64,000 nt of DNA from Escherichia coli. Its GTDB lineage: Bacteria; Pseudomonadota; Gammaproteobacteria; Enterobacterales; Enterobacteriaceae. Below are positions 19,316 through 64,000 of this stretch, piece after piece. Position 1 is the stretch's first letter. Every line of letters starts with the position of its first letter. Location of the stretch: the NCBI RefSeq assembly GCF_041886205.1, contig NZ_CP169029.1. One strand, written 5' to 3'. Made by a program: the position numbers and the translations under genes. The notes beneath the pieces were generated by a model that was not told the origin of the DNA, ran no database searches, and was given only the letters and a program-made list of their open reading frames with translations.

Positions 19316-20911
<1,596 letters not shown>

Positions 20912-44386: not shown

Positions 44387-44443
44387 TACTAATAACGGCG
44401 AGTAAGTAGTACGCATCTTACCTCTTTTTTAGAGATAACCATT

Positions 44444-44572
44444 ATGACAATAGAAAAACACGAAAGAAGCACTAAGGATTTGGTGAAAGCAGCAGTATCG
44501 GGATGGCTGGGCACTGCGCTTGAATTTATGGATTTCAAGAGTCATACGTGTCAACTATTTGATAAATATTAA
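44444..44572 (+). pseudogene. ydfJ: probable 5' fragment (42 codons) of a ydfJ-like MFS transporter gene interrupted by the prophage
   Basis: Short ORF MTIEKHERSTKDLVKAAVSGWLGTALEFMDF... ending abruptly next to the integrase gene; in K-12 the Qin prophage splits ydfJ beside rspB (recalled, not aligned). Confidence 0.45.
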
Positions 44573-44573
44573 A

Positions 44574-45869: not shown

Positions 45870-45888
45870 TAGTTAGTGTGGCTTTTAG

Positions 45889-46140
45889 TCAAGTAAGATG
45901 ACGTCTTGGTCTTGCTGATGCCTGGCGCTCAATCCAGCGATCAATTTCTTCCAGGTTGTAAAAGCATGGACTGTTATCCCATGGCATACCGTCATGAGCG
46001 ACATGCTTATATTCCCTTCCTTCCATAAACGATTTTTCCCGGGCCTTTTTTAACGTACCTTTTTTTATTCCTTTCAGCGCAATTAACTGCTCTTCGGATA
46101 CCCATTTGCCGGGAGAGACAATCATGATTACTTCGCTCAT
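45889..46140 (-). CDS. putative excisionase / small DNA-binding protein
   Basis: 83-aa ORF immediately upstream of int in the same orientation. Confidence 0.55.
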   Translation of the reverse strand: MSEVIMIVSPGKWVSEEQLIALKGIKKGTLKKAREKSFMEGREYKHVAHDGMPWDNSPCFYNLEEIDRWIERQASARPRRHLT

Positions 46141-46212
46141 CGATTTCTTTATCTCTTACATCAGACGAGCGCCGGTTGCAGAATACCAGTCACAACCGGC
46201 GACAGTTGAACA

Positions 46213-47935
46213 TTAAGAATCAGCCTGACTCGGGATCAGTTTTTGCCAGATAGCTGAAACGTATTTTGCCTGGTAACGGGCGTCATCAAGTGCATTATGG
46301 CGCTCACCTTCGAATGGAATAGCCGTTCTGGCATCGAAGTCTATGGCTTTCCCCAGCTCAACGATTGTGCGTACATCGCGATCGTTGTAGTAACGCCACG
46401 GGCAGGGGATCCCCTGCCGTTCGTATGAACGGCGCAAAATCGTGTTGTCGAAGTTGGCTCCATTTCCCCAGACATGAACAAAAAATTCACCGGAGTTTTC
46501 GTCGATAAATTCCCGCAATTGTAACAGTGCATCATCTAACGGGATTTCATCGGTCATAATGGCAGATTGCGCTTCGCGTGATTGTTTAAGCCACCATTTA
46601 ATGGTGTCCCGATCAATGACTCCGCCAGCAGTTTCCAGATCGATAGTCTTACTAAATTCCGGTCCCATATCTCCGGTTTGCGGATCGAAAAATATTGCAC
46701 CTATTGAGATAATCGGGGCATCGGGATTTTTTCCCATGGTTTCAAGGTCGATCATCAGATGAATCCCCGCTCTGCTGGTGGATGTGAGATTATGATGACC
46801 GTTTGCCTTAATTAAGGGATCTGACGCCTCGCCAGTTTCACTATCGCTGGCATGATGCTGATTGCCGCCAGTGTTCTCCTTGTGCTGATGCGCAGTGCCT
46901 TCTATTTCCTCCGGATCATTTTCCTGAACTTCAGGCTGATTCTCTCCATCGAATATTTCCTGGTATGTTGCGTCACCCATCACCGCACCACAATCAGGGC
47001 AGTTGCCGCCACCGCTCTGACCGCAGGCGGTGCAGATCTTTTCCGGTTCCTGTTGCACTACTGGTTCAGGTTGTTTCGTTTCTGGCTCGTTTTGTTGCAT
47101 ATTTGGGCTGTTTTGTTCCGCTTTCTGGTCGTTCTGTTCCGTTTCTTGCTGGTTCTGGTTCACAGAATCGCGGGTCTGGATCCCCTTAATCCATTTCGGA
47201 TCATTCGGGTCGCTAATCCCTTCAACAAATTCACCACGTGATACTGCAAGCAGTTCATCGGCGTCAGGCTGGCTGATATTGGCTGCCTGCATAATTTTGT
47301 TTACTTCGTCAGCGGTAACTTTTACTGACCCTGGTTGTGCGGTCGTGTCAGATGCACCAGTATTTTGTTGTGAACCTGAGTATGTACCGTTTTTGCGGGC
47401 GAAATATTCTTCTTTCGTGATTTCAGTAGCCCCAGCAGACAGCGCCTTATCCAGACCAGAAAGTTTATTTGCGCGACCGTATTTTTCGCCATCCTTGTCG
47501 GTGAAGAGGAAGTAGAACGGCCCCTCACGTTCTACAGATGGTTCGACTTCCACTTTGCATTCGGTTTTTTCGTTGTCTGGAATTGCCGTTTCCACTGCAT
47601 CAGTTTCTGGTACTGGCGACGAGAGAGTATCAGTTGCGCTCTGATTTGTTCCTTCATCTTCAAACACGCCCTTTGTAGTCAGGTATTCAGTAATGTATTT
47701 GTTCAGTGCCACAGGGTCTTTGTGAATGTCGATCGGACGTTCACGGACAAGGCCAAAAATAGTCTGGCGGTCGTAGCGAAGGGCATCAGGCTGTTTGCGC
47801 ATTGATGCCGAGATACGCTTCCAGTCTTCGCGGTCGTTGTCGATAACTTCATTTTTTGCCCAGCGATGGATGCTGCCGTCAATGTTTCCGGCATCCACAT
47901 CACCAGGCCAGAGAGCGTAGGCCAGTTCGTCATCC
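46213..47935 (-). pseudogene. 3' portion of a phage exonuclease gene (DnaQ-like DEDDh 3'-5' exonuclease domain) interrupted by IS629
   Basis: Open frame continues upstream from the called ORF right up to the IS629 left end; C-terminus has exonuclease motifs (…MIDLETMG…, …HNALDDA…). Confidence 0.7.
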
Positions 47936-47989
47936 TGAACCGCCCCGGGAATCCTGGAGACTAAACTTCCTGAGAAAGAGGTAAACAGG

Positions 47990-48316
47990 ATGACTAAAAA
48001 TACTCGTTTTTCCCCCGAAGTCCGTCAACGGGCAGTCCGTATGGTTCTGGAAAGTCAGAGCGAATATGACTCACAATGGGCGACAATTTGTTCCATTGCT
48101 CCAAAGATTGGCTGTACGCCGGAGACTCTGCGTGTCTGGGTTCGCCAGCATGAGCGGGATACCGGGGGCGGTGATGGAGGGCTCACCACCGCTGAACGTC
48201 AGCGTCTGAAAGAGCTGGAACGTGAAAATCGTGAACTGCGCCGCAGTAACGATATCCTTCGCCAGGCTTCCGCTTATTTTGCGAAGGCGGAGTTCGACCG
48301 CCTCTGGAAAAAATGA
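47990..48316 (+). CDS. IS629 transposase OrfA (HTH)
   Basis: 108-aa [22 protein letters not shown]...; ends in an A-run slippery site. Confidence 0.85.
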
Positions 48317-49203
48317 TGCCACTGCTGGATAAGCTGCGTGAGCAGTACGGGGTCGGACCGCTATGCAGCGAACTGCATATTGCCCCGTCAACGTATTACC
48401 ACTGTCAGCAACAGCGACATCATCCGGATAAACGCAGTGCCCGTGCGCAGCGCGATGACTGGCTGAAGAAAGAGATACAGCGCGTATACGATGAAAATCA
48501 CAAGGTATACGGTGTGCGTAAAGTCTGGCGTCAGTTGTTACGGGAAGGTATCAGAGTGGCCAGATGCACTGTGGCACGTCTCATGGCGGTTATGGGACTT
48601 GCCGGTGTTCTCCGGGGTAAAAAGGTCCGTACGACCATCAGCCGGAAAGCCGTTGCCGCAGGCGACCGCGTAAACCGTCAGTTCGTGGCAGAACGACCTG
48701 ACCAGCTGTGGGTGGCTGATTTTACTTACGTCAGCACATGGCGGGGCTTCGTCTATGTGGCGTTCATCATTGATGTGTTTGCCGGATACATCGTGGGGTG
48801 GCGGGTCTCATCGTCCATGGAAACGACATTCGTGCTGGATGCACTGGAGCAGGCGTTATGGGCCCGTCGACCGTCCGGCACGGTCCATCACAGTGATAAA
48901 GGTTCTCAGTATGTATCGCTGGCCTACACACAGCGGCTTAAGGAAGCCGGATTACTGGCATCAACAGGAAGTACAGGCGACTCGTATGACAACGCGATGG
49001 CGGAGAGCATCAATGGTCTTTACAAAGCGGAGGTAATACACCGTAAGAGCTGGAAAAACCGTGCAGAAGTGGAACTGGCCACACTCACGTGGGTGGACTG
49101 GTATAACAATCGACGATTGCTGGAAAGGCTGGGCCATACTCCTCCGGCAGAAGCAGAAAAAGCTTATTATGCTTCCATCGGAAACGATGATCTGGCAGCC
49201 TGA
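48313..49203 (+). CDS. IS629 transposase OrfB (DDE integrase domain), -1 frame relative to OrfA
   Basis: 296-aa ORF with DDE motif region; overlaps orfA in the -1 frame as in IS3-family elements. Confidence 0.85.
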
Positions 49204-49245
49204 GTTCACAGATAAAACACTCTCCAGGAAACCCGGGGCGGTTCA

Positions 49246-49760
49246 TCCAGTGTTTTCCATGTCTGCTTGTATTCGCGATGAATGGCAGCAATGACCGGGT
49301 TGATTTTTCCTGTTGAATTTTCAGTGTGCTGTTGATTGGCTCTGGCACGGGCGAGATCAACAACAGACGTGTATTTTCCGGCTTCCTTGCGTTCACCTTC
49401 GCGACGTTTTTTCCAGATGCGCATCTCTGCCTGAATTTCGGGCCATTTGGCACCAGGCTTACATTTATGCTTAACCCACCCGATGGCATGCAGCTTAAGC
49501 TCCGGATACATAGCGTTAACTTCTGGCATTTTCATCAACGCTTCAACGATATGGCCGTCGAATGTTGCCATGTCTTCCTGCAACAATTCCTGTGCGCTAA
49601 TCACCATATCAACAGTGATGTTTTCACATGTGTCGAACTTAACCATGACAGCGTTCTGTACTTCAGGGGCTAGGTTGTCAAAAGTGACGTTCATCGGATC
49701 GGATTCAGTCTCGACCGGGACAAAGGAAGCAGACGCCTCATCCCAGCGGTTTTCCTGCAT
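49246..49760 (-). pseudogene. 5' portion of the IS629-interrupted phage exonuclease gene
   Basis: ORF beginning MQENRWDEASASF... runs into the IS629 right end; its last ~12 called codons are IS-derived. Confidence 0.6.
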
Positions 49761-50017
49761 ATATTCAGCATCCCAGGAATCGAGGGCAGGGCGGGGTATA
49801 CCGGGTTTATCCTCGCAAACAAGAAATTTATAAGCGCAGTCCTGAGCAGCCGGATAATGTTCCAGGAATTGCCAGTGAAATTTTGCGCGGGCGCGACGTT
49901 CATCACCGGCTTCAATGGCAGTGGCTACAGTGAGACGAACTTCGCCGTGCGCTTTCGTGTTGTGTGCCTGCTTTTAACCACGTCAGGCGAGGTGGTATCC
50001 TTAAAATCACCACAGTT

Positions 50018-50593
50018 TTAAGGATTCATTAAGCAATGTCGCAACCACCAATAAATCCGCTTAAGAACATGAAAATTGATTACTGGTATAAAGCGCTTAC
50101 AGTTGTTGGCGCTGCGTTGTTTGTCTTTAATGGAACGTCTTTTTTTGACAGATATCCCGTTGTTCCATTGGATTTTTTGTCCTCCGGCATCTTTTTTATT
50201 GGTTTGGGGGAGTGGATTAATCACCCTCTCAAAGTGAGATTTATTGGTCCTGGAGTTTGGACTCGTGGATATAATCGTTCTTAGTGCGCACTCGGTATCA
50301 TCTTCGACATACTTGGTTGTTTCCTGATTGTTACAGGAGTCGTCAAGTTCTTCTGATGTAAAACCGCAAATGGGGCACGTAACGGGAATTTTGAAAAGCG
50401 TTTCTCCGGGTTCCAGAACAAAATTTTCTGCGGTCTGATTTTGCTTCTCATATTTGTGCTCCGCGTCATTGTGAGAGCACATTCTTATTCTGAGTGCCTG
50501 TTTAAACTCACTGAAGCTGAGAGCTTCTTCGCCTTCGGCAAGACCTTCGAAGTATTCTTCGTAAGCCTTTTCCATGATTGTGTCGAAATCCAT
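50018..50593 (-). CDS. hypothetical prophage early-region protein with CxxC zinc-ribbon-like motif; 3' extent uncertain
   Basis: ATG at 50593 preceded by RBS AGGTGAG; N-terminal ~100 aa protein-like (…VTCPICGFTSEE…), distal part low-complexity and overlapping a plus-strand ORF. Confidence 0.4.
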   Translation of the reverse strand: MDFDTIMEKAYEEYFEGLAEGEEALSFSEFKQALRIRMCSHNDAEHKYEKQNQTAENFVLEPGETLFKIPVTCPICGFTSEELDDSCNNQETTKYVEDDTECALRTIISTSPNSRTNKSHFERVINPLPQTNKKDAGGQKIQWNNGISVKKRRSIKDKQRSANNCKRFIPVINFHVLKRIYWWLRHCLMNP

Positions 50594-50594
50594 A

Positions 50595-50831
50595 TCACTC
50601 ACCTGAGTTTCTTTCCAGCCAGCGACGGGCACCATTTTCGGTTTTAAACGTTTTGCTTTTGGTATACGTCATCGCGGTGAACGTACCGTCCTGGTTGGGG
50701 AACACGCCACATACCGGAGATTCGCTGTTGCCAAGATCGATAGTATCCATGCTGACCTCATTTCCCCTTAACGCCGGGGTAGCGGAACAAAAACCTGCTG
50801 CATAGTTATTAAAGTTGAACCCTGCCGTCAT
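50595..50831 (-). CDS. hypothetical small prophage protein
   Basis: 78-aa ORF whose stop lies 1 nt before the next ATG (translationally coupled arrangement). Confidence 0.4.
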   Translation of the reverse strand: MTAGFNFNNYAAGFCSATPALRGNEVSMDTIDLGNSESPVCGVFPNQDGTFTAMTYTKSKTFKTENGARRWLERNSGE

Positions 50832-51047
50832 GTTCTTACGCCTCGGGCTGGCTACTTAACCCCTGACCACTGCCTGGTAACTCGAAGTATTGCCCTGCAT
50901 TCTGTGGGGCGGGGTGGGTGGCAGGCATATAATGTACTTTGCGTTCATTGTTGTAAAGTACTTTTAGTACATTTTGTGTGTAAAAAAATGAGATGGGATA
51001 AAGTGAAGCACAAACCCGGAGGAAGGCGCTACCGGATTTATGCTGGT

Positions 51048-51467
51048 TTAAGAGGCTTTTTGTTTTTTCTTTCGTGCTAACTCTTCGTAAATTGCATTGT
51101 ACTTCTGTTTTTTCTCTTCAAGAGTTTTTAAAAGTTCATCTGTCTCACTGTCAGGGAGCTCGTCCAGAAGGTCAATGATGATTTTTTGTCTTGGATTTAA
51201 CTCCTGATAGAAACGTACCTGTCCACTTTCTTCTGTATCCTCTCCCAAAAGATAGGTTGGTGTTGTTCCTATTAGTGTTGCTAATTCCCTTAATTTCTCC
51301 CGGCGAGGAATTGTTTCGCCATTAAACCATTTGCTAACCGCTTTTGGTGTTAATTTCATTCGACGGGCAATTTCTGCCTGCCTTCCATGTTGTTCATAAC
51401 CAGCGTTTTCACAGGCTAGCGCAAGCCTACTGGCGAACTCTTTACGCGCTTTATCTTCATGAACCAT
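51048..51467 (-). CDS. prophage repressor, XRE-family HTH (DicA/cI-like)
   Basis: 139-aa ORF with HTH (…MKLTPKAVSKWFNGETIP…); divergent from a Cro-like gene. Confidence 0.75.
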   Translation of the reverse strand: MVHEDKARKEFASRLALACENAGYEQHGRQAEIARRMKLTPKAVSKWFNGETIPRREKLRELATLIGTTPTYLLGEDTEESGQVRFYQELNPRQKIIIDLLDELPDSETDELLKTLEEKKQKYNAIYEELARKKKQKAS

Positions 51468-51546
51468 AAGTTCAATGATATTCGCTCTTGAATGTACTGT
51501 CAGTTCTGTTATAGCATGTACTCAAAGTTCACACTGTGAGGGTGAT

Positions 51547-51801
51547 ATGAACCAGAAAACACTTGAAGATGTAATCAAAACTGTTCGCGTTGCTGTTGTG
51601 GCCGACGTTTGTGGTGTCAGCCAAAGAGCAATCTATAAATGGATGGATAACGGAAAATTGCCTCGCACAGAATATACCGGCGAAACAAATTACGCTGAAA
51701 AAATCGCTCTTGCATCAAACGGATTATTTTCTGCCGATGCAATTTTAACTATTGGCAGGAATAAAACTACTACGAAAAAGCTGATGGGAGTTGATTCATG
51801 A
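51547..51801 (+). CDS. Cro/YdaS-like HTH protein
   Basis: ATG at 51547 with RBS GAGGGTGA; HTH (…VADVCGVSQRAIYKWMDNGKLP…); ATGA overlap with next gene. Confidence 0.65.
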   Translation: MNQKTLEDVIKTVRVAVVADVCGVSQRAIYKWMDNGKLPRTEYTGETNYAEKIALASNGLFSADAILTIGRNKTTTKKLMGVDS

Positions 51802-52223
51802 AAATCAAGCATGAACACATCCGCATGGCGATGAATGCCTGGGCGCATCCGGACGGCGAAAAAGTACCGGCTGCGAAAATTACCAAAGCGTATTTCGAGC
51901 TGGGAATGACGTTCCCGGAACTGTATGACGACAGCCATCCGGAAGCCCTGGCTCGCAATACTCAGAAAATTTTCCGCTGGGTGGAGAAAGACACCCCTGA
52001 TGCGGTTAAAAAAATTCAGGCGTTGTTACCAGCTATCGAAAAAGCAATGCCACCTCTGCTGGTGGCCCGAATGCGCAGTCATAGCTCAGCCTATTTTCGG
52101 GAACTAGTGGAGACGCGGGAACGACTGGTGAGAGACGCTGATGATTTTGTCGCAGTGGCGATCGCTGGTTTCAACCAGATGAATCGTGGTGGCCCTGCAG
52201 GAAATATTGTGGTTGTGCATTGA
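51798..52223 (+). CDS. YdaT-like prophage protein
   Basis: 141-aa ORF beginning MKIKHEHI..., same length class and context as Rac YdaT (recalled). Confidence 0.6.
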   Translation: MKIKHEHIRMAMNAWAHPDGEKVPAAKITKAYFELGMTFPELYDDSHPEALARNTQKIFRWVEKDTPDAVKKIQALLPAIEKAMPPLLVARMRSHSSAYFRELVETRERLVRDADDFVAVAIAGFNQMNRGGPAGNIVVVH

Positions 52224-52294
52224 CTCGCAATATTCATACCGGATCACTTCCGGCAATTTGTGAGTAAAAAGATTCGGTATCAAAAGAGGTGAGT

Positions 52295-53365
52295 ATGGCT
52301 AACGCCTGGCTCAGATTATGGCATGACATGCCAAATGACCCTAAGTGGCGAACAATTGCCAGGGTGTCAGGGCAGCCAATTGCAACAGTGATGGCAGTGT
52401 ATATCCACCTCTTGGTGAGCGCGTCACGAAATGTCACGCGAGGTCACATTGATGTCACGACAGAAGATTTGGCAAGTGCGCTCGACGTGACAGAAGAGGT
52501 AATTGATTCAATTTTGCAGACGATGCAGGGGCGGGTACTTGATGGTGATTTAATCACTGGATGGGAAAAACGCCAGGTGCTTAAAGAGGACAACGGCAAT
52601 ATTTCGCAAACCGCAAAATCTCCTGCAGAGCGCAAGAGGGCGCAGCGAGAGAGGGAAAGAAAGCGGGAACAAAATGGCGATTGTCACGGCGCGTCACGAA
52701 ATGTCACGCACATGTCACGACGAGTCACGACAGATAAAGATACAGATAAAGATACAGATCAAGAAGATCAAAACACTATGGTCCATGGCGTAAAAAACGC
52801 CACGAACCAGGCAGGGGATGTTCAGACCGTCAATCTTGGTCAGCCAGCAGGCACGACACCGGAAGCCGATTCAGCGTATGCGCTGAAAGCCGATTCGGGC
52901 GCTGTGCAGCAGGTGATGACCGCAAGGCCGGAGCAATCACACCAACTGCAGCAGCCCGAAGCCGATTCCGCCATTCAGCGGGAAGCCGATCGGGTAGTCC
53001 CGGAAAACACCGGGCAGTCTGTGGGACGAGTGGATTATCCGGATGTGTTCGAACAGGTCTGGCGGGAGTACCCGTTGCGTGCCGGAGCAAACCCGAAGAA
53101 ATCCGCTTTCAGTGCCTGGAAGGCCAGATTACGCGAGGGGGTGCCACCAGAGGCCATGCTGGATGGCGTGAGGCGTTACGCAAGATACTTGGCGGCTACC
53201 GGGAAAACGGGAACGGAATTTGTTCAGCGAGCGACGACGTTTTTTGGACCGGACCGGAATTTTGAGAACTCCTGGTTGCTCCCGGTAAGCGGCACGAACA
53301 ACCAGCGTTGTGTGAATCATATTTCTGAACCGGATAACGAAATTCCGCCGGGCTTCAGGGGGTAA
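52295..53365 (+). CDS. putative phage replication initiation protein (O/YdaU-like)
   Basis: Position after the cro-like gene; ATG at 52295 with RBS; internal iteron-like DNA repeats. Confidence 0.55.
   Translation: MANAWLRLWHDMPNDPKWRTIARVSGQPIATVMAVYIHLLVSASRNVTRGHIDVTTEDLASALDVTEEVIDSILQTMQGRVLDGDLITGWEKRQVLKEDNGNISQTAKSPAERKRAQRERERKREQNGDCHGASRNVTHMSRRVTTDKDTDKDTDQEDQNTMVHGVKNATNQAGDVQTVNLGQPAGTTPEADSAYALKADSGAVQQVMTARPEQSHQLQQPEADSAIQREADRVVPENTGQSVGRVDYPDVFEQVWREYPLRAGANPKKSAFSAWKARLREGVPPEAMLDGVRRYARYLAATGKTGTEFVQRATTFFGPDRNFENSWLLPVSGTNNQRCVNHISEPDNEIPPGFRG
52421..52760 (+). repeat. iteron-like direct repeats (putative prophage origin) inside the replication gene
   Basis: Exact 19-bp repeat GCGTCACGAAATGTCACGC at 52421-52439 and 52690-52708; about nine GTCAC motifs in two clusters; tandem ACAGATAAAGAT repeat at 52731-52760. 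Confidence 0.65.
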
Positions 53366-53405
53366 GTGTTAATTTCTGGTCATGAGGTAATTTTCAGGAG
53401 GGCTT

Positions 53406-53828
53406 GTGGCAAAAGTTTTTACACAAGAAGAGCGGGAAAAAATTAAAGGGCAGGTTGTTGAACTCGTACGCCAGAGTGGGCGCGAGACGTTAAGACAACT
53501 GGAAACTAAAACTGGGGCAACAAAATATATGATGAACGTTCTGGCCAGAGAGCTGGTTGCCAGTGGCGATGTATACAACTCTGGTTACGGGTTATTCCCG
53601 TCTGAACAGGCGCGTAAGGACTGGCAAAATGCCCGTAAAAAGCTCTCAAGGGCAAAGCTGAAGAAACCATCTGCGGTTGATCCGGACCTTATCTGGTCAT
53701 TACCTGATGGAGAAATACGTCGTTACGACAGGCGTCATAATATGATTTGTACTGAGTGTCGTAAAAGCGAAGTTATGCAGCGCATATTGTCGTTTTATCA
53801 GGGGGATGTTCGGTATTTATTGAAGTGA
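53406..53828 (+). CDS. hypothetical prophage protein
   Basis: 140-aa ORF with GTG start and RBS AGGAGGG 6 nt upstream. Confidence 0.45.
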   Translation: MAKVFTQEEREKIKGQVVELVRQSGRETLRQLETKTGATKYMMNVLARELVASGDVYNSGYGLFPSEQARKDWQNARKKLSRAKLKKPSAVDPDLIWSLPDGEIRRYDRRHNMICTECRKSEVMQRILSFYQGDVRYLLK

Positions 53829-54223
53829 CGAGATTAAAGTGCATTAGTTCAGATGCAAATTGACATTTTGTGGCACAGGGTAGAGCTAGCGTGGTTGTCC
53901 GCTTTGTGCCAACAGCGGACATTATGGAAGGTCAGAGTTAAAGATTAAAATGGGATGCTGTGTGTTTTCTCCAGGTTTTGCTCTATACCTTTCGGGATAC
54001 TCCACCGACAGAATACGAAAATCAACATTATCAACGGCTCGAAGTGTCTAGATTATCCATGGCAATTCATGGGAAATCCCATCCAACGGCTTATGCTTCA
54101 TGTTGCTTTTTGAGATCGCTTCTAGCATAGCTCCACTCAATAATGTTGTCGGGTCGTTGCTGATCGAAAAGGATACGGGATTCAATACCATTACCTAAAA
54201 AGCTGGTACCGGAACTCGGGCTG

Positions 54224-55228
54224 GTGGTCGTTAAGCCGGGCCGTGAATCCATGCCGGTATTCCACAATACCCGGGTACTGGTGGAGCCGGAACCGAAAAG
54301 CATGCGTAATCTGCCGTCCGGGGTCGTTCCTGCCGTTCGCCAGCCGCTGGTGGAAGACAAAACATTGCTGCCGTTTTTCAGTAACGCACGGGTAATTCGT
54401 GCTGCTGGTGGTGCTGGTGCATTGTCTGACTGGCTGTTGCGCCATATTAAATCCTGCCAGTGGCCACACGGCGATTATCATCACAGCGAAACCGTTATTC
54501 ACCGATATGGTACCGGCGCAATGGTGTTGTGCTGGCACTGCGACAACCAGCTGCGTGACCAGACATCCGAATCACTCGAGCAACTTGCTCATCAAAACCT
54601 GTCAGCATGGATGATTGACGTCATCGGTCACGCAATAAGCGGTACGCAGGAGCGTGAATTATCTCTGGCTGAATTATCCTGGTGGGCGGTCCGCAATCAG
54701 CTGGCGGACGCGCTACCGGAAGCGGTATTACGTCGCTCGCTGGGATTACCAGCGGAAAAAATCTGCTCGGTGTACCGCGAAAGCGACATCGTACCGGGAG
54801 AGCAGACCGCCACCAGCATATTGAAACAGCGCACAAAAAATCTTGCACCGTTGCCTCACGCCCACCAGCAACAAAACCCATCACAGGAAAAGACGGTGGT
54901 AAGCATCACCGTTGATCCAGAGTCTCCGGAATCTTTCATGAAGCTGCCTAAACGTCACCGGTGGGTTAAGGAGAAATACACACGCTGGGTTAAGACACAG
55001 CCGTGTGCTTGCTGCGGTATGCCAGCCGACGATCCGCATCATCTGATTGGTCACGGGCAGGGCGGAATGGGAACCAAAGCACATGATCTCTTTGTTTTGC
55101 CTTTGTGCAGAAAGCATCACGACGAGTTGCATACGGATACCGTGGCATTTGAAGAGAAGTATGGCTCCCAACTGGAGCTGATTTTTCGATTTATCGATCG
55201 CGCGCTGGCAATTGGTGTGCTGGCCTAA
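54224..55228 (+). CDS. DUF968-family prophage protein with C-terminal Cys/His (HNH-like) motif
   Basis: C-terminus …[43 protein letters not shown]…; start uncertain (GTG 54224 or ATG 54251). Confidence 0.55.
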
Positions 55229-55245
55229 TTTTGTGGAGTAAGTTG

Positions 55246-55623
55246 ATGCGTGATATTCAGATGGTTCTTGAGCGTTGGGGGGCATGGGCGGCTAATAATC
55301 ATGAAGATGTGACCTGGTCGTCCATTGCCGCCGGTTTTAAGGGATTAATTCCTTCAAAAGTAAGATCTCGTCCGCAATGCTGTGACGATGACGCGATGAT
55401 CATTTGTGAATGTATGGCTCGCCTGAAAAAAAACAACAGCGATTTACATGATTTATTGGTGGACTATTATGTCGGCGGCATGACTTTTATGGCGCTTGCA
55501 CATAAGCATGGGCGATCTGATTGTTGGGTTGGCAGGATGCTCCAGAAAGCTGAGGGCGTAGTGGAGGGCATGCTGATGGTGTTGGATCTCCGATTGGAGA
55601 TGGATGCTGATTGTTCGAAATAA
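55246..55623 (+). CDS. putative late-gene antiterminator (small Q-like family)
   Basis: 125-aa ORF with RBS GGAG, located just upstream of a terminator and the lysis region; family assignment from memory. Confidence 0.45.
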
Positions 55624-55721
55624 TTAAAGGAAAAGTTGCTGTCTGATTTTCATTAGTCTAACATTTTAAATGTTGGAATCGCAACGTAGTTATTATCATA
55701 TAACAGCTTGTTTCCTGATTT

Positions 55722-55750
55722 AGCCAGCCTCCCCAAAGGCTGGTTTTTTT
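55722..55750 (+). terminator. intrinsic terminator about 100 bp downstream of the Q-like gene (candidate tR')
   Basis: Hairpin GCCAGCC-TCCCCAAA-GGCTGG followed by a T7 run. Confidence 0.6.
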
Positions 55751-55778
55751 CTAATAAGTATCATTTCGGGTGGGGATT

Positions 55779-56303
55779 TTATTGTTTAACCCATAATAGT
55801 TCATTGACATTGAATCCCAACTTTTGAGCGGTACGCACATAGTCTGCTTTTACATTATCTGGAATAGTTTGGGTCCTTGCCAGAATCCATAGGTATTCTC
55901 TGTTCGGACCACTGACAAGAGCATACTTATACTCATCATCCAGTTTGATTACATTATAGCCACCATAGAAGGGGCCAAAAAACGAAACTTTCAACGCTGC
56001 AGTTTTAGTATCTCCAGTAAAGTATGCTTTACCTTCGCTCTCGCTCCATTTGTTTTTCGTTGGATCGTATCCACGGTTAAGTACGCGAATCCCTCCGTCG
56101 TTCCGTTTTTCATAAGTAGCGCTGACCTGTTCCAGACCACGTTCGAACCAGTTCTCGAGGCGAGCTATTTCATACCATTTTCCGAGGTAGCGGTTGGCGT
56201 CAAAATTTGTAATCGGCTGCACACCTTTAGGTGGTGTCGGGGCCTTACATGCTATAAGAGTGAAAGAGAGTGCAATGCCAGTCAACACAGGCCATAACTT
56301 CAT
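55779..56303 (-). CDS. outer-membrane lipocalin lipoprotein (Blc-like)
   Basis: 174-aa ORF with lipobox (LIAC) and lipocalin motifs (…NFDANRYLGKWYEIARL…, …KVSFFGPFYGGYNVI…). Confidence 0.75.
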   Translation of the reverse strand: MKLWPVLTGIALSFTLIACKAPTPPKGVQPITNFDANRYLGKWYEIARLENWFERGLEQVSATYEKRNDGGIRVLNRGYDPTKNKWSESEGKAYFTGDTKTAALKVSFFGPFYGGYNVIKLDDEYKYALVSGPNREYLWILARTQTIPDNVKADYVRTAQKLGFNVNELLWVKQ

Positions 56304-56495
56304 AATAAATCCTGTACTTTTGATAGTTGAGAGTAAGTATGAAAGATAGATGAGTACGACCGATCACTTAAAGAACTTTCCTACTATATTAGGAATAGTC
56401 AATAACAGAAAAATTGTCAGTGATGAAGCCAGAAAGGCAATTTAGTCCGTGCACTACAAAGTTTATGTGTTAATGAATTAGTCAAGGGGGAGGAA

Positions 56496-57455
56496 ATGAT
56501 AAAAAAACCTGTGATTGGGATCAGCGGTTGTTTGGGCGGTTCTGCTGTTCGTTTTGATGGTGGTCACAAAAGAGATGACTTTTTAATGGACAAATTAGTG
56601 GAATGGGTAACATTCAGACCAGTATGTCCGGAAATGGCTATAGGGCTGCCAGTTCCGCGTCCTGCTCTACGACTTGTGCGCTCGAAGCAAGGAAATATAC
56701 GGATGTGTTTCAGCCACGACCAGAATGAGGATGTGACAGAGAGAATGACAGAGTTTAGTCGTTCTTATATGGACAAATTAAAGGATGTATCGGGGTTTGT
56801 GGTTTGTGCTAAATCTCCCAGCTGTGGCATGGAGCGCGTGCGTGTCTATGATGAAAATGGTAATCGAGGTCGTAAAGATGGAGTGGGACTATTTACGAGC
56901 ACTTTGATGGAAAAGTTTTCCTGGCTACCGGTTGAAGAGGATGGGCGATTACATGATCCAGTGCTTCGTGAGAATTTTATTGAAAGAGTTTTTGCTTTGC
57001 ATGAGCTCAATCACCTTTACAAGGAGAAATTATCAAGAAGAGAGTTATTAGCTTTTCATAGTCGTTATAAGCTTCAGTTGTTGGCGCATAGCCAGGCAGG
57101 CTATAAAGATATGGGACCATTTGTGGCTGCAATACACGAGTGGGCGGACCTTGAATCATACTTTGAGGTGTATCGTGATAATCTGATGGCGATTCTCAGA
57201 AAACCAGCATCACGTAAAAATCACACGAATGTGCTGATGCATATACAGGGGTATTTTAGTAATTACTTAAGTACACGCCAGCGTAAAGAGTTGAGCGAGG
57301 TTATACTTAACTATCGCTTTGGCACATTGCCTCTTCTTGCGCCGTTGACTCTGCTGAAGCATTATCTGGGTGAGTATCCTAATGATTACTTGCTTACACA
57401 GAATTACTTCGATCCCTATCCGGAAGAACTGGCTCTAAGACTGATGGTGAATTAA
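56496..57455 (+). CDS. DUF523/DUF1722 fusion protein (YbgA-like C-terminal half)
   Basis: 319-aa ORF with conserved Cys residues in the N-terminal half; family call from memory. Confidence 0.5.
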   Translation: MIKKPVIGISGCLGGSAVRFDGGHKRDDFLMDKLVEWVTFRPVCPEMAIGLPVPRPALRLVRSKQGNIRMCFSHDQNEDVTERMTEFSRSYMDKLKDVSGFVVCAKSPSCGMERVRVYDENGNRGRKDGVGLFTSTLMEKFSWLPVEEDGRLHDPVLRENFIERVFALHELNHLYKEKLSRRELLAFHSRYKLQLLAHSQAGYKDMGPFVAAIHEWADLESYFEVYRDNLMAILRKPASRKNHTNVLMHIQGYFSNYLSTRQRKELSEVILNYRFGTLPLLAPLTLLKHYLGEYPNDYLLTQNYFDPYPEELALRLMVN

Positions 57456-57861
57456 CTGTATGCGATATCATCTGAAAGTGATGAGTTCCTGTATGCAGGA
57501 TATTTACAATCGTAAAAACTACGCTATGATGCTCATAGTGTCAGTTTTTATAAAAATCCTGTTCACGCTAAAGAAAACATTGAGATGCAATTTAATGTTG
57601 GTAAACATACCAACCCCAAAAGATTTTATTCAATCTGTTTTTATATGAAGATATTTCAAGTGAATATAAAGAGCATATAATATTATTATTGCACGCAGCT
57701 ATTATAATATAACAGATTAGTTTAATGATTTGTTTTTTGTGAGTTAAACACATGGTTTTATAGTTGTGATGCAATGAGATTTTCCTTATTGTTGAACTGG
57801 CGAATATTGATTTTCCACCTATACTTACCTGGTGTAACCCCAATGATATCAGGTGGATAAT

Positions 57862-58575
57862 ATGTCATACATATGTTCTATCATTTTGGTGTTGAACTCG
57901 TTTGGTGTCCGAATTGGTAAAGAAGATATTTTGTTTAAAAAAGGAAATGCTGTCCTCATTGAATACAATTTAAAAGATCTTTTTTCGTCAAATACAGATC
58001 ATCTAATGATCGTAGATGTTGAGGAGAAAACAGTTAATGATTTCTTTAAAAACTACACACTCTCACCTTTTTCTGTAAGAAGGTTTTATCCGTCATACTT
58101 GATAGTAGAATGTGAAGATTTTTCATTGTTAAAGAACTTGGTTGCATGCTTGAATTGTGATAGCAAAACCGTGGATGTAGTTAGAAATCAAATATCACTT
58201 GCATGTCTTGCTGTCTTATCTTCAGAGAAAATAGTGCAAAGTTTTTTGTTCGGAAGTCTTAATAGCTTAGGTTGTAAAGTTAAGGCTATTATTCACTCGG
58301 ATATCTCAGCGTCATGGAGACTTTGTGATATATCTTCAAGATTATATATGAGCGAGAGTTTGTTAAAAAGAAAATTAAAAGACGAAGGATTATCGTTTAG
58401 TAAATTAATTCTTGAAGAACGAATGATGATGGCGCAAAGATTATTGATCTACAGTAACCATACTGTCGGCAAGGTGGCGGGAATATGCGGGTATGACAAT
58501 GCATCATATTTTGTAAGTGTTTTTAGAGGATATTTTGGTGTGCCTCCGCACCAATATTTATCAAGATTTTCTTAG
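57862..58575 (+). CDS. AraC-family transcriptional regulator
   Basis: C-terminal AraC-type HTH (…LLIYSNHTVGKVAGICGYDNASYFVSVFRGYFGVPPHQY…); RBS AGGTGG before ATG at 57862; gene and flanks visibly AT-rich. Confidence 0.75.
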   Translation: MSYICSIILVLNSFGVRIGKEDILFKKGNAVLIEYNLKDLFSSNTDHLMIVDVEEKTVNDFFKNYTLSPFSVRRFYPSYLIVECEDFSLLKNLVACLNCDSKTVDVVRNQISLACLAVLSSEKIVQSFLFGSLNSLGCKVKAIIHSDISASWRLCDISSRLYMSESLLKRKLKDEGLSFSKLILEERMMMAQRLLIYSNHTVGKVAGICGYDNASYFVSVFRGYFGVPPHQYLSRFS

Positions 58576-58765
58576 AAGATATGATGTGATGGCATTTTAT
58601 AAAGTTATTTTTTGAAGTGTAAGATTATACGATATTTTTAGCTACGCCAGAATAATTGCTGGCGTTTTTCTTTTTGAATAGATGTTCGGGCCTTACGCTA
58701 ATGTAACTTCTTTCCTTCTTCGAACCAAACCGTGTACACCATCCGTTATCTGCGGAGGTGAGGCT

Positions 58766-58981
58766 ATGAAATCCATGGATAAGTTAACAACGGGCATCGC
58801 CTACAGCACCTCTGCAGGCAGTGCTGGCTACTGGTTTTTACAGTTGCTCGATAAAGTCACGCCCTCACAGTGGGCGGCAATAGGTGTATTGGGTAGTCTG
58901 GTATTTGGCATGCTGACGTATCTGACAAATCTTTATTTCAAGATTAAAGAAGACAGGCGTAAGGCTGCGAGAGGAGAGTAA
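58766..58981 (+). CDS. phage holin, class II (S21-like pinholin)
   Basis: 71-aa product [26 protein letters not shown]... with two TM segments; RBS GGAGGTGA; first gene of lysis cassette. Confidence 0.85.
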
Positions 58982-58985
58982 TCCA

Positions 58986-59297
58986 ATGACTCAAGACTAT
59001 GAACTGGTTGTGAAAGGAGTCCGTAATTTTGAGAATAAAGTTACGGTAACTGTAGCCTTACAGGACAAAGAACGCTTTGACGGTGAAATTTTTGGCCTGG
59101 ATGTCGCCATGGACCGTGTTGAAGGAGCTGCGCTGGAGTTTTATGAGGCAGCAGCCAGAATGAGCGTCCGGCAAGTCTTCCTGGAAGTAGCAGAAAAATT
59201 GTCAGAAAAAGTTGAGTCTTATCTGCAGCATCAGTACTCCTTTAAGATTGAAAATCCTGACAATAAGCACGAGCGTCCTCATCATAAATATCTATGA
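58986..59297 (+). CDS. YdfR-like hypothetical protein located between holin and endolysin
   Basis: 103-aa ORF; same position and size as ydfR in K-12 Qin (recalled). Confidence 0.55.
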   Translation: MTQDYELVVKGVRNFENKVTVTVALQDKERFDGEIFGLDVAMDRVEGAALEFYEAAARMSVRQVFLEVAEKLSEKVESYLQHQYSFKIENPDNKHERPHHKYL

Positions 59298-59823
59298 ACA
59301 CAAAAATCAGATACGGCCTGTCGGCTGCCGTTCTGGCGCTGATTGGTGCTGGCGCATCTGCTCCTCAGATACTTGACCAGTTTCTGGACGAAAAAGAAGG
59401 TAACCACACAATGGCATACCGCGATGGTTCTGGCATATGGACCATCTGTCGGGGTGCCACAGTGGTGGATGGAAAAAACGTTTTTCCCAATATGAAACTG
59501 TCGAAGGAAAAATGCGACCAGGTCAACGCCATTGAGCGTGATAAGGCGCTGGCATGGGTGGAGCGCAATATAAAAGTTCCACTGACCGAGCCACAGAAAG
59601 CCGGTATCGCGTCATTCTGTCCCTATAACATTGGCCCTGGTAAGTGTTTTCCGTCGACGTTTTATAAGCGGCTTAATGCCGGTGATCGTAAAGGCGCATG
59701 CGAGGCGATTCGCTGGTGGATAAAGGACGGTGGACGTGATTGCCGCATTCGTTCAAATAATTGTTACGGTCAGGTTATTCGTCGTGACCAGGAGAGTGCA
59801 TTAACCTGCTGGGGGATAGAACA

Positions 59824-59827
<4 letters not shown>
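59294..59827 (+). CDS. phage endolysin, GH24 lysozyme with N-terminal signal-anchor-release (SAR) segment
   Basis: 177-aa ORF; hydrophobic Gly/Ala-rich N-terminus (…LSAAVLALIGAGASA…) followed by lysozyme domain. Confidence 0.85.
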
Positions 59828-60320
<493 letters not shown>

Positions 60321-60683
60321 GGTAATATTAAATCGGAACATTTACATCGCGGAATGTAAAATTTAAATAAAAAGGACTCTTCCATGAGCCAAAATTCCTG
60401 AAATCTTAAGGGTAAGATAAAAGGTCTTAATCAGAATGACACGTTATTATTAATAAATAAAGCTATTCTTTCATTGCTGTGTTTTTCTTTACAAAAGTAA
60501 TCCTTGCTATGGGTGGTTAATCATGCGTTAATGGTGTTCTGGTTTGTTACAAATTTATCTGAAGCAGTCATTGTTATAATTTTATTATTTGTACCTCTTG
60601 AGATTTCCTTGTTGGTTTTTCTCTCTGATATTTTTTTTCGGACCATTCTGCCCAAGGGCTAATTTCTTCAAAAGGTAATAATT

Positions 60684-60896
60684 ATGTCTAACAAAATGAC
60701 TGGTTTAGTGAAATGGTTTAACCCTGAAAAAGGTTTTGGTTTCATCACGCCGAAAGATGGCAGCAAAGATGTGTTTGTCCATTTCTCAGCAATTCAGAGC
60801 AACGATTTCAAAACATTAACTGAGAATCAGGAAGTTGAATTTGGTATTGAGAACGGACCTAAAGGTCCTGCCGCTGTTCATGTAGTGGCGCTTTGA
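60684..60896 (+). CDS. cspI: cold-shock protein (CspA family), prophage-encoded
   Basis: 70-aa [41 protein letters not shown]...; preceded by a long AT-rich leader. Confidence 0.8.
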
Positions 60897-61167
60897 GGTA
60901 GACAATATTACAAACCATATTCACTTTAGATGCCCGTGTTGTCATGGTTCCCAGTATAGAACATCATCTTTTGATGTTTCTGACATGAATCCTTTCGGGG
61001 CAAAATGTATCTTTTGTAAATCAATGATGATTACATTTGATAATATTTCACAATACTTAAATGCCAGCCGTCTGTCGTTGGATTTAAAAAAGTGAAAATG
61101 AAGGCTCCTTCGGGAGTTTTTTTGCTTGGTATCTATTCGATGGATACTCACATACTACGGTAACATC

Positions 61168-61398
61168 ATGAAAAAAATCATAGTTTTTTTTAACTCTGAA
61201 CCAGCAGTGGTAGTGCCAGCGATGACTGGAGTTAACACCATCATGCGTGAATATCCAAATGGCGAAAAAACACACCTTACTGTAATGGCCGCAGGGTTTC
61301 CATCTCTGACCGGAGATCATAAAGTCATTTATGTAGCAGCGGATCGACATGTAACTTCAGAAGAAATTCTGGAAGCAGCAATGAGACTCTTGAATTGA
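61168..61398 (+). CDS. hypothetical small prophage protein
   Basis: 76-aa ORF from ATG at 61168 (MKKIIVFF...); weak RBS. Confidence 0.35.
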   Translation: MKKIIVFFNSEPAVVVPAMTGVNTIMREYPNGEKTHLTVMAAGFPSLTGDHKVIYVAADRHVTSEEILEAAMRLLN

Positions 61399-61570
61399 TT
61401 TGATTCTAATGCATTGATAATAAATGATAATCATCTTTATCTGTTTGTGTGAAATTTAGACCGTCGTATGTTGATTATTGCGATGTTTCATCTTATCTTT
61501 TATACGTTTGCTCCATATAATTGACACTACTGTGTACCAGGACAGTCATAACAGACTAAAAGAGGAAATG

Positions 61571-61744
61571 ATGAACATTGAAGAGTTAAAAACAAAAACA
61601 GAAGCAGATATTTCTGAATATATAACAAAAAAAATCATTGAGCTTAAGAAAAAGACCGGGAAAGAAGTTACCAGTATCCAGTTTACTGCACGGGAAAAAA
61701 TGACTGGTCTTGAAAGCTATGATATCAAGATTGATTTAATCTAG
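61571..61744 (+). CDS. gnsB: GnsA/GnsB-family small protein
   Basis: 57-aa product MNIEELKTKTEADISEYITKKIIELKKKTGKEV...REKMTGLESYDIKIDLI. Confidence 0.75.
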   Translation: MNIEELKTKTEADISEYITKKIIELKKKTGKEVTSIQFTAREKMTGLESYDIKIDLI

Positions 61745-62039
61745 CATGTTTATAGTATTAGCATCAATTTCTCATCAGATGCTATTCAACAATACAAATT
61801 ACCCATAAACCTCGTTTTTACGGGGTTTTGTTATATTTAAACATTACCGAATAGATATAAATCTCGATTGTCGATGGTATTGGTTATGTGACAATACCTA
61901 GTCTTTCCGGTATGCCTGAAGAGAATACAAACGACAGATTATGTAAGGGAAACGCGCTGAAACTTTCACTCTTTCATGCTGAGTGATTTGACGTTATATT
62001 TTTAGCCGCAAGTGAAGAGCAAACGAATGGAGCGACAAA

Positions 62040-62246
62040 ATGCATAAAGATCAATACACTGATGCCCCCTCCCAGGAGCAGGTTCGTGTAAAAACTATGC
62101 TTAATAGCACCATTTCGATGGGTTACCCGGATGTTGTAATTGCATGTATAGAACATCAAGTATCTCTGGAAGCATTCAGGGCAATTGAGGCCGCGTTAGT
62201 AAAGCACGATAAGAATACGAAGGATTATTCCCTGGTGGTTGACTGA
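62040..62246 (+). CDS. hypothetical small prophage protein
   Basis: 68-aa ORF; no recognised family. Confidence 0.3.
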
Positions 62247-62469
62247 TCACCATAACTGCTAACCATTCTGACCATTTCACAAGTGACAGAGTCAATATCG
62301 TATTCTGTCACTGTAAGGCTAATACAGTACTGCAATTCAACTACAGCAATGCCTCGTATTTAGGTGAATTTACAATATCGTCCAGTTCGGATGCCGGCTG
62401 CATTTCTGAAGATAAGGCATTTCGGTTCGCGTATTTTCCCCTCATGCTCGTCAGTCCTGCGCGTAGTAA

Positions 62470-62838
62470 GAAACACCAAACGGGACGGTTACAGTCACCA
62501 TAAGCGATGATCATAACTTTGACCGTCAAATCATTATTCCGCCCATTATCTTTAACGGAATAGCGTATAGCGATCCGGGAAGTGGTAATAACCCGGGAGG
62601 TACAAGATACACGGGTTATGGTTTTGAAGTTCGCAAAAACGGTGTATTAATCGCATCCAGAGAAACTAAAGGGGCCATTCCCGGTAGCTACAGTGCGGTT
62701 ATTGATATGCCGAGTGGCAGGGGAAGCGTCACTCTGGAGTTTAAGGTTTTCCATAAAGGCAATCAGTGGGCAGGTAATATCACCGACTGTACGGTGATTG
62801 TGACCAAAAAAGCCGCTTCCGGCATCAGTATTCGTTGA
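62470..62838 (+). pseudogene. 3' remnant of an upstream tail gene (host-specificity J-like), no start codon
   Basis: 123-codon open frame ending at TGA 62836-62838 with no in-frame start; lies immediately upstream of lom as J does in lambda. Confidence 0.4.
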
Positions 62839-62907
62839 AATTGTTATAACCCATATAAGGGCACCAGAAATGGTGCCTTTTTTATTGCAGAAAAGCGAGA
62901 GGTAATT

Positions 62908-63507
62908 ATGCGTAAACTTTATGCCGCCATTTTGTCCGCAGCCATTTGTCTGGCCGTATCCGGTGCGCCTGCATGGGCATCTGAACATCAGTCCACGCTG
63001 AGCGCGGGGTATCTTCATGCCTCGACGAACGTTCCCGGCAGCGATGATCTTAACGGGATTAACGTGAAATACCGTTATGAGTTTACGGACACACTGGGGC
63101 TGGTGACGTCATTCAGCTATGCAGGAGACAAGAATCGCCAGCTTACCCGTTACAGCGATACCCGCTGGCATGAAGATTCCGTGCGTAACCGCTGGTTCAG
63201 CGTGATGGTGGGGCCGTCTGTGCGCGTGAATGAATGGTTCAGCGCGTATGCGATGGCGGGTGTGGCTTACAGCCGTGTGTCGACTTTCTCCGGGGATTAT
63301 CTCCGCGTAACTGACAACAAGGGGAAAACGCACGACGTGCTGACCGGAAGTGATGACGGTCGCCACAGCAACACGTCTCTGGCGTGGGGAGCTGGCGTGC
63401 AGTTTAACCCGACCGAATCCGTGGCCATTGATATTGCTTATGAAGGCTCCGGCAGTGGCGACTGGCGCACTGACGGTTTCATCGTGGGTGTCGGTTATAA
63501 GTTCTGA
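62908..63507 (+). CDS. lom: Lom/Ail/OmpX-family outer membrane protein
   Basis: 199-aa ORF with signal peptide, beta-barrel features and C-terminal …GVGYKF; RBS GAGAGG. Confidence 0.85.
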
Positions 63508-63533
63508 TTAGCCAGGTAACACAGTGTTATGAC

Positions 63534-63560
63534 AGCCCGCCTGTTCAGGCGGGCTTTTTT
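63534..63560 (+). terminator. intrinsic terminator downstream of lom
   Basis: Hairpin GCCCGCC-TGTTCAG-GCGGGC followed by TTTTTT. Confidence 0.7.
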
Positions 63561-63571
63561 GTGGGGTGAAT

Positions 63572-64000
63572 ATGGCAGTAAAGATTTCAGGTGTACTGAA
63601 AGACGGCACAGGAAAACCGGTACAGAACTGCACAATCCAGCTGAAAGCAAAACGTAACAGCACCGCGGTGGTGGTGAACACGCTGGCCTCAGAAAATCCG
63701 GATGAAGCCGGGCGTTACAGCATGGACGTTGAGTACGGTCAGTACAGCGTTATTCTGTTGGTGGAAGGATTCCCGCCGTCACATGCCGGGACCATCACCG
63801 TGTATGAAGATTCCCGACCCGGTACGCTGAATGATTTTCTCGGTGCCATGACGGAGGATGATGCCCGTCCGGAGGCTCTGCGACGTTTTGAACTGATGGT
63901 GGAAGAGGTGGCGCGTAACGCGTCCGCAGTGGCACAGAACACGGCAGCCGCGAAGAAGTCAGCCAGTGATGCCAGCACATCTGCCCGTGAGGCGGCAACT
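63572..64000 (+). CDS. stf: side tail fibre protein (Stf-like), 5' partial; continues beyond window
   Basis: ATG at 63572 with RBS; 143 codons open to the window edge; N-terminus MAVKISGVLKDGTGKPVQNCTIQLKAKRNS... as in lambda Stf (recalled). Confidence 0.8.
   Translation, partial: MAVKISGVLKDGTGKPVQNCTIQLKAKRNSTAVVVNTLASENPDEAGRYSMDVEYGQYSVILLVEGFPPSHAGTITVYEDSRPGTLNDFLGAMTEDDARPEALRRFELMVEEVARNASAVAQNTAAAKKSASDASTSAREAAT

Follow-up and report, generated by a model that had tools for sequence, protein, structure and literature searches.

A Qin-type lambdoid prophage of Escherichia coli with an 18.3-kb late-gene deletion at a 6-bp microhomology and a J pseudogene

The window, by which we mean the whole 64-kb stretch of Escherichia coli DNA that was analysed, carries toward its 3' end a lambdoid prophage, the features of which are collected in Table 1. 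Here the right end of a lambdoid genome, comprised of cspI, ynfN, gnsB and an open reading frame of 68 amino acids, runs directly into the 3' end of a J gene, which is followed by lom and by the first part of the side tail fibre gene stf. A terminator-like hairpin lies 3' of gnsB. The 68-aa ORF resembles lambda p79/YbcW, its counterpart being a hypothetical ORF at lambda 47629-48090 that is called YbcW in one phage record; no Pfam family was matched by it. A cspA-type thermoregulator was detected by Rfam at 60538-60923 (112.8 bits; gathering threshold 78) and spans the 5' leader and the start of the prophage cspI. Apart from this element, the only Rfam hit in 44000-64000 at E<=0.01 was the ALIL frameshift pseudoknot inside the IS3-family element (48271-48387), with no RNA element near the junction and no DicF in the prophage.

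Table 1. Features of the ydfJ prophage, with positions in the window.
Feature	Position	Strand	Basis and remarks
attL core TTATGGATTTC	44526-44536	.	Within 5' end of ydfJ; ydfJ codons 1-31 = 44444-44536
Tyrosine integrase, intact	44574-45854	-	Open frame; 425/426 aa identical to ECCWS199; PGAP in wlxctx60/ECCWS199
Excisionase, intact	45889-46140		
IS3-family element, 1,310 bp	47936-49245		Splits 3'-5' exonuclease gene; 3-bp target duplication TCC
Short-homology junction relative to ECCWS199	49926-49933		927 bp (ydfD/dicB) absent; 8-bp overlap TACAGTGA
Short-homology junction relative to ECCWS199	54203-54208		3.77 kb (hypothetical gene, AbiH, hokD) absent; 6-bp overlap CTGGTA
Holin, intact	58769-58981		
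Endolysin, intact	59294-59827		
Poly-A run A7, -1 frameshift in rzpQ (Rz i-spanin, DUF2514; 59824-60320)	59903-59909	+	Alignment with intact ECCWS199 rzpQ (A8)
gnsB	61571-61744	+	Pfam GnsAB_toxin 2e-33; PGAP gnsB in wlxctx60
68-aa ORF, lambdoid right end	62040-62246	+	WP_000548593.1 in wlxctx60, ZY22049, MB53, ECCWS199
Non-coding DNA, 68-aa ORF to junction (223 bp)	62247-62469	+	Leads into terminase genes in intact relatives
Deletion junction	62470-62475	.	GAAACA, 6-bp microhomology; three-way alignment with MB53
J 3' remnant, pseudogene without start codon (codons 1016-1137 + stop)	62470-62838	+	Alignment, Pfam, PGAP in sister genome
Terminator-like hairpin, J remnant/lom interval	62857-62880	+	Consensus scan only
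lom, intact, Ail/Lom outer-membrane beta-barrel, 199 aa	62908-63507	+	Pfam Ail_Lom 1-199/199, 4e-120
Terminator-like hairpin 3' of lom	63534-63555	+	Consensus scan only
stf 5' part, side tail fibre gene, runs off window	63572-64000	+	Pfam phage_tail_N 1-134/134, 5e-73

The start-less frame downstream of the 68-aa ORF had been read in a first-pass annotation of this DNA as the 3' end of J, and our data bear this out. The prophage in strain MB53 has an intact J of 1137 aa, with residues 1016-1137 of which the frame shares 100% identity; the frame also aligns with lambda J (chain of 1132 residues, PDB 8iyk) at residues 1015-1131 and matches PF12421 (Ig_GpJ_C, the C-terminal receptor-binding domain of J) with an E-value of 3e-25 and 89.2 bits against a cutoff of 26.2, covering profile positions 19-134 of 135. 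It is thus a piece of J and not a complete, unrelated small gene. The remnant has the C-terminal receptor-binding domain of the lambda gpJ family and has neither the full length of about 1130 aa, nor the N-terminal tail-tip domains, nor a start codon, and is a gene fragment rather than a member protein; PGAP labels it in the genome wlxctx60 as [quoted passage not shown]. It keeps the original J frame up to the stop at 62836-62838, is preceded directly by two stop codons (TAG TAA at 62464-62469), and its earliest in-frame ATG, GTG or TTG, at 62707, leaves just 43 aa. The J remnant is a dead pseudogene.

Lom, the retention of which had been noted in the first pass, is encoded by an intact gene with a full-length match to PF06316 of the Ail/Lom family and is 100% identical to the Lom protein of MB53. 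The gene is bracketed by the two terminator-like hairpins, which gives it a stand-alone layout. A simple consensus scan of the + strand from 61400 to 63700 found no sigma-70-like promoter, including the stretch upstream of lom, and a lom promoter within the J remnant is therefore unsupported. Adhesion mediated by Lom has been reported and expression of lambda Lom is known from the literature (PMC3594210). The stf gene that follows encodes 823 aa in wlxctx60.

The prophage is inserted in the 5' end of ydfJ. The core TTATGGATTTC at its left end is repeated at the other prophage end in wlxctx60 (locus 27242-27252), the attR copy being taken from this sister genome only, and the joined outer flanks rebuild an uninterrupted ydfJ. 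Of 5,426 complete E. coli genomes, 2,008 have the joined flanks as one continuous stretch, 3 of them at 100% identity, and hence the ydfJ site is occupied or disrupted in ~62% of genomes. Both this insertion with a duplicated att core and the gene order ess, ydfR, rrrQ, rzpQ, cspI, ynfN, gnsB ... tfaQ, pinQ, ydfK assign the element to the Qin type; the order was established from Pfam matches (holin, lysozyme, DUF2514, GnsAB) and from PGAP names in the sister and related genomes at 99.9% identity. Qin is present in 48% of 638 strains and ranges from 11 to 97 kb across 189 strains (PMC6379469). The content beyond position 64000 was read from wlxctx60, which differs from the window elsewhere in the prophage; downstream of the J remnant this genome carries lom, stf, tfaQ, pinQ, ydfK, ynfT and a truncated ydfJ. 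Structural genes rearranged to a place beyond the window, which would have spoken against a loss, were thus absent from the sister genome. With a downstream part like that of wlxctx60, the element would measure ~24 kb; the genome of the isolated phage mEp460_ev081 (LR597641.1) is 45.9 kb.

Many genes of the element are undamaged. The integrase is kept, as had been proposed, and so are the excisionase, a repressor/cro-like pair, the replication genes, ydfU, Q, the holin, ydfR, the endolysin, cspI, ynfN, gnsB and lom. The lysis cassette had been called complete as well, which is wrong: holin and endolysin are intact but the gene for the Rz spanin is frameshifted, its frame being split into pieces of 41 and 140 aa. 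The same A7 run is found in wlxctx60, where rzpQ is annotated as a pseudogene, and a homopolymer sequencing error keeps a small residual chance as its source. Decay of the prophage is in fact more advanced than the earlier reading saw, with an insertion sequence in the exonuclease gene and two more deletions at short homologies. The inserted element belongs to the IS3 family, and its ends and length resemble those that we take IS629 to have. The larger of the two differences from ECCWS199, that of 3.77 kb, may be a deletion in the window or an insertion in ECCWS199.

To define what is missing from the window, the flanks of the J remnant were compared with those of two relatives that carry a full block of late genes, the MB53 prophage, which occupies the same chromosomal site, and the phage mEp460_ev081. 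In both, the flanks lie ~18.3 kb apart and enclose all genes from the small terminase to J. The MB53 interval encodes a DUF1441 (Nu1/NohA-like) small terminase, the large terminase, a small head protein, the portal and a protease/major-capsid fusion, followed by the head-tail joining proteins, the tail tube, G and T, the tape measure, M, L, K, I and J, and the gene order in mEp460_ev081 is the same. The parental sequence is taken here from other strains and not from the direct ancestor. The flank with gnsB and the 68-aa ORF is 98.2% identical to the window in MB53 and 99.8% in mEp460_ev081, and the flank with the J 3' end, lom and stf is 100% identical in MB53 and 96.3% in mEp460_ev081. The left flank is colinear with MB53 to locus 1713, with strain ZY22049 to 7076 and with mEp460_ev081 to 45469.

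When 19 late proteins of MB53 were searched by tblastn against the whole 64-kb window, the only matches were J 1016-1137 and Lom, both at 100%. The remaining 17, all morphogenesis proteins, had no tblastn match in the window, and the annotation of the sister genome lists none of them downstream. The first-pass annotation had seen no terminase, portal, capsid or tail-tube genes between gnsB and lom and had concluded that the prophage was probably defective after an apparent deletion of its packaging and head genes and most of its tail genes; the first point is confirmed over the full window, and the second is supported by this search together with the comparison with intact relatives. Since genes essential for virion assembly and packaging are absent, the element is a defective prophage. 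The lambda cosN 12-mer GGGCGGCGACCT was found neither upstream of the small terminase gene in MB53 nor in the window. From the usual lambdoid position of cos, upstream of the small terminase gene and inside the deleted block, we infer that cos was lost too.

The junction itself was located to the base. In the three-way alignment with MB53, the hexamer GAAACA is present as a single copy in the window and once at each end of the deleted block in MB53 (locus positions 1708-1713 and 20001-20006, 18,293 bp apart). Homology to J begins at 62470 when 62200-62900 is searched by BLAST against phage records, with up to 99.8% identity, and the same position is the start of all J/lom/stf matches when 61400-64000 is compared with the 5,426 complete E. 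coli genomes; homology of the gnsB side to other strains stops at 62475. These breakpoints agree to the base with the start coordinate that the first pass had given for the frame, and the right endpoint coincides with the exact boundary of codons 1015/1016 in the 1137-codon J gene. Inspection of the junction sequence and alignment found no IS element, IS end, inverted repeat, other repeat, att/gix-like site or recombinase site, and parental sequence runs uninterrupted on both flanks. Among 200,000 random junctions simulated on the MB53 sequence, a microhomology of at least 6 bp was rare (P=0.0016). The junction thus has the hallmarks of a short-homology deletion, namely a direct repeat at both parental ends, one copy left and no mobile-element or recombinase site, and its standing as a deletion junction is confirmed well beyond chance.

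Among the 5,426 complete genomes, the 200-bp junction sequence was found with 100% identity in one, wlxctx60, and 1,817 further genomes match one half or the other of this query, not both. The window and wlxctx60 share the 18.3-kb deletion and the Rz frameshift, whereas wlxctx60 is without the 1,310-bp IS and without 5.5 kb of the early region. The missing stretch, 49600-55137 of the window (wlxctx60 locus 13383-13739 against window 49599/55138), contains the genes for immunity and replication together with ydfU except for its last 90 bp. These differences suggest stepwise further decay after the shared deletion. The occurrence of the junction in a single other genome indicates that the deletion is recent and confined to one lineage, with no sign of long-term maintenance.

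Taken together, our data very strongly favor a single deletion of ~18.3 kb, at a microhomology in a Qin-type prophage, that left a dead J fragment behind. The deletion in this prophage of the ydfJ 5' end extends from non-coding DNA ~225 bp past the 68-aa ORF to J codon 1015. Lost with it were the terminases, the portal, the protease/capsid, the head-tail connectors, the tail tube, G/T, the tape measure, M, L, K and I, together with 89% of J. Short direct repeats give rise to deletions either through slipped or copy-choice joining that does not need RecA or through short-homology illegitimate recombination. Given a deletion, the hexamer shared by both ends and the lack of an IS at the junction point to short-homology illegitimate recombination as its probable route, rather than to an IS-mediated or site-specific event, with end joining at the microhomology and slipped or copy-choice joining both conceivable as forms of it. 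Two other deletions in the same prophage are also located at short overlaps, of 8 bp and 6 bp. The resulting element would neither make nor package virions; it keeps int and xis, both att cores (one of them seen in the sister genome), immunity, replication, Q, holin, endolysin, the csp/gnsB cargo, lom and, as read from the sister genome, stf-tfaQ-pinQ.

A different view of the same remains is that the late operon still present (Q, holin, endolysin, csp/gnsB cargo, lom and stf-tfa-pin) is a domesticated module held by selection, and not the product of neutral decay. Candidate benefits would be adhesion through Lom, vesicle or lysis functions, phage defence through Stf/Pin, or a reserve of tail-fibre and J alleles. 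Such a role would fit the intact lom with its complete identity to MB53, the intact stf, tfaQ and pinQ of the sister genome, and the functions described for remnants of this kind (PMC12529663, PMC3594210, 10.1101/2020.11.02.365361), among them the PinQ/Stf-based blocking of phage T2 (PMC12529663) and the recombination of a J relic of the REL606 genome into lambda, which doubled the fitness of the phage (10.1101/2020.11.02.365361); a further paper, 10.1101/2020.10.31.337758, contained nothing on prophage relics. However, lom is truncated in ZY22049, where terL is fused to its 3' part, and deleted in ECCWS199, stf is frameshifted in MB53, the Rz gene is frameshifted in the window, and the J remnant is untranslatable as a domain. 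Together with the rarity and apparent recency of the junction, these observations make domestication unlikely, if still worth consideration. More specifically, the remnant might act as a headless and tailless unit that, upon induced lysis of some cells, releases free side tail fibres or Lom-bearing vesicles for receptor blocking or anti-phage defence, as reported for PinQ/StfE2, or that donates fibre or J receptor-binding sequences to superinfecting lambdoid phages; we regard this elaboration as a long shot. Through the deletion, lom, stf and tfa have come to lie within ~7 kb of the antiterminator gene Q, which is intact.

The remaining alternatives concern the origin of the junction, and all three were rejected, on the strength of the wlxctx60 junction, the truncation of J and the clean flanks. 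A deletion made by a mobile element or site-specific recombinase, be it an IS-adjacent deletion or the work of Pin or Int, could be imagined in a prophage that carries an IS3-family element and at a locus where IS1, ISVsa5, IS2 and IS3 are found in other strains, but with no IS end, inverted repeat or att/gix-like site at the joint and with both flanks continuing uninterrupted into parental sequence, this origin is very improbable. Scarcely credible is the reverse order of events, in which the short form is ancestral and MB53-like strains gained the morphogenesis block later from a superinfecting lambdoid phage. Cryptic prophages are reported to swap DNA with incoming phages (PMC3945230), and the wide size range of the Qin locus (PMC6379469) would agree with such gains; yet a start-less, in-frame copy of codons 1016-1137 arises by truncation only, the left flank ends in non-coding DNA that continues to terminase genes in an isolated phage, one GAAACA stands at the joint against two in the long form, and the junction is not widespread. 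An assembly artefact that collapsed repeats of two lambdoid prophages, which share J/lom/stf in E. coli at a median of 3 places per genome, is just as implausible, since the identical 200-bp junction is present in the independent complete assembly of wlxctx60 and a 6-bp overlap is too short for assembly collapse.

A single short-homology deletion therefore remains our preferred explanation, and the lesions of other strains place it in context. In ZY22049 a truncated large terminase gene is fused to the 3' part of lom, in ECCWS199 terminase and portal fragments are joined to a tail-fibre remnant and ISVsa5 lies in the endolysin gene, and in MB53, unlike in the window, the lysis genes are gone via IS1, along with the immunity and replication genes, while every morphogenesis gene is kept. 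These lesions in the same gene block are independent. The ydfJ prophage decays differently in each strain: strains that share it lose different, partly complementary modules, with complementary halves of the phage kept among them.

Comparison with the Qin prophage of K-12 showed the same site in the ydfJ 5' end, with 31 ydfJ codons before the attL core here against 28 missing codons reported for K-12 (PMC6379469). Cargo and late genes are shared by PGAP name (essD/essQ, ydfR, rrrQ, rzpQ, cspI, ynfN, gnsB, tfaQ, pinQ, ydfK and ynfT). The two differ in that the window has a deletion from before the terminase genes to inside J together with an intact lom and integrase, and in that its early region has no dicB/dicF and carries an IS in the exonuclease gene. 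K-12 Qin is presumably also devoid of head and tail genes, and we take it to have kept nohA (a Nu1 homologue), to lack J, lom and an intact stf and to carry an integrase pseudogene. The Rac remnant of K-12, whose gene order we take to be a tail-gene fragment followed by lomR and stfR, and the J relic ECB_00512 of E. coli B REL606 likewise are defective lambdoid prophages in which the distal tail module is kept and the morphogenesis genes are lost, but they differ from the window in locus, in breakpoints and in the length of the J or tail remnant. ECB_00512 is documented as a donor for recombination with lambda J (10.1101/2020.11.02.365361), whereas the 369-bp remnant of the window is known from sequence alone.

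The locus is thus a case of the ordinary, already-known mosaic decay of a cryptic prophage and not a new kind of system, and it provides a base-exact example of a lambdoid prophage turning cryptic: 18.3 kb were deleted at a 6-bp microhomology, and a frameshift, an IS insertion and smaller deletions came after. For annotation, it should be described as a Qin-type prophage that is defective, contains a J pseudogene and is not expected to produce phage by itself. The present data do not indicate a role for the remnant, other strains have kept lom and stf only inconsistently, and the importance of the finding beyond annotation is small. Excision, induced lysis and recombination with incoming lambdoid phages are processes in which the intact integrase, excisionase, holin, endolysin, Lom and tail-fibre genes could still play a part.

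Three genes between Q and the holin are not phage-like. They encode a lipocalin-family protein (55779-56303, - strand), a YbgA-family protein (56496-57455) and an AraC-type regulator (57853-58575), and the trio, spanning 55779-58575, has the look of cargo inserted downstream of Q, where such insertions usually lie.
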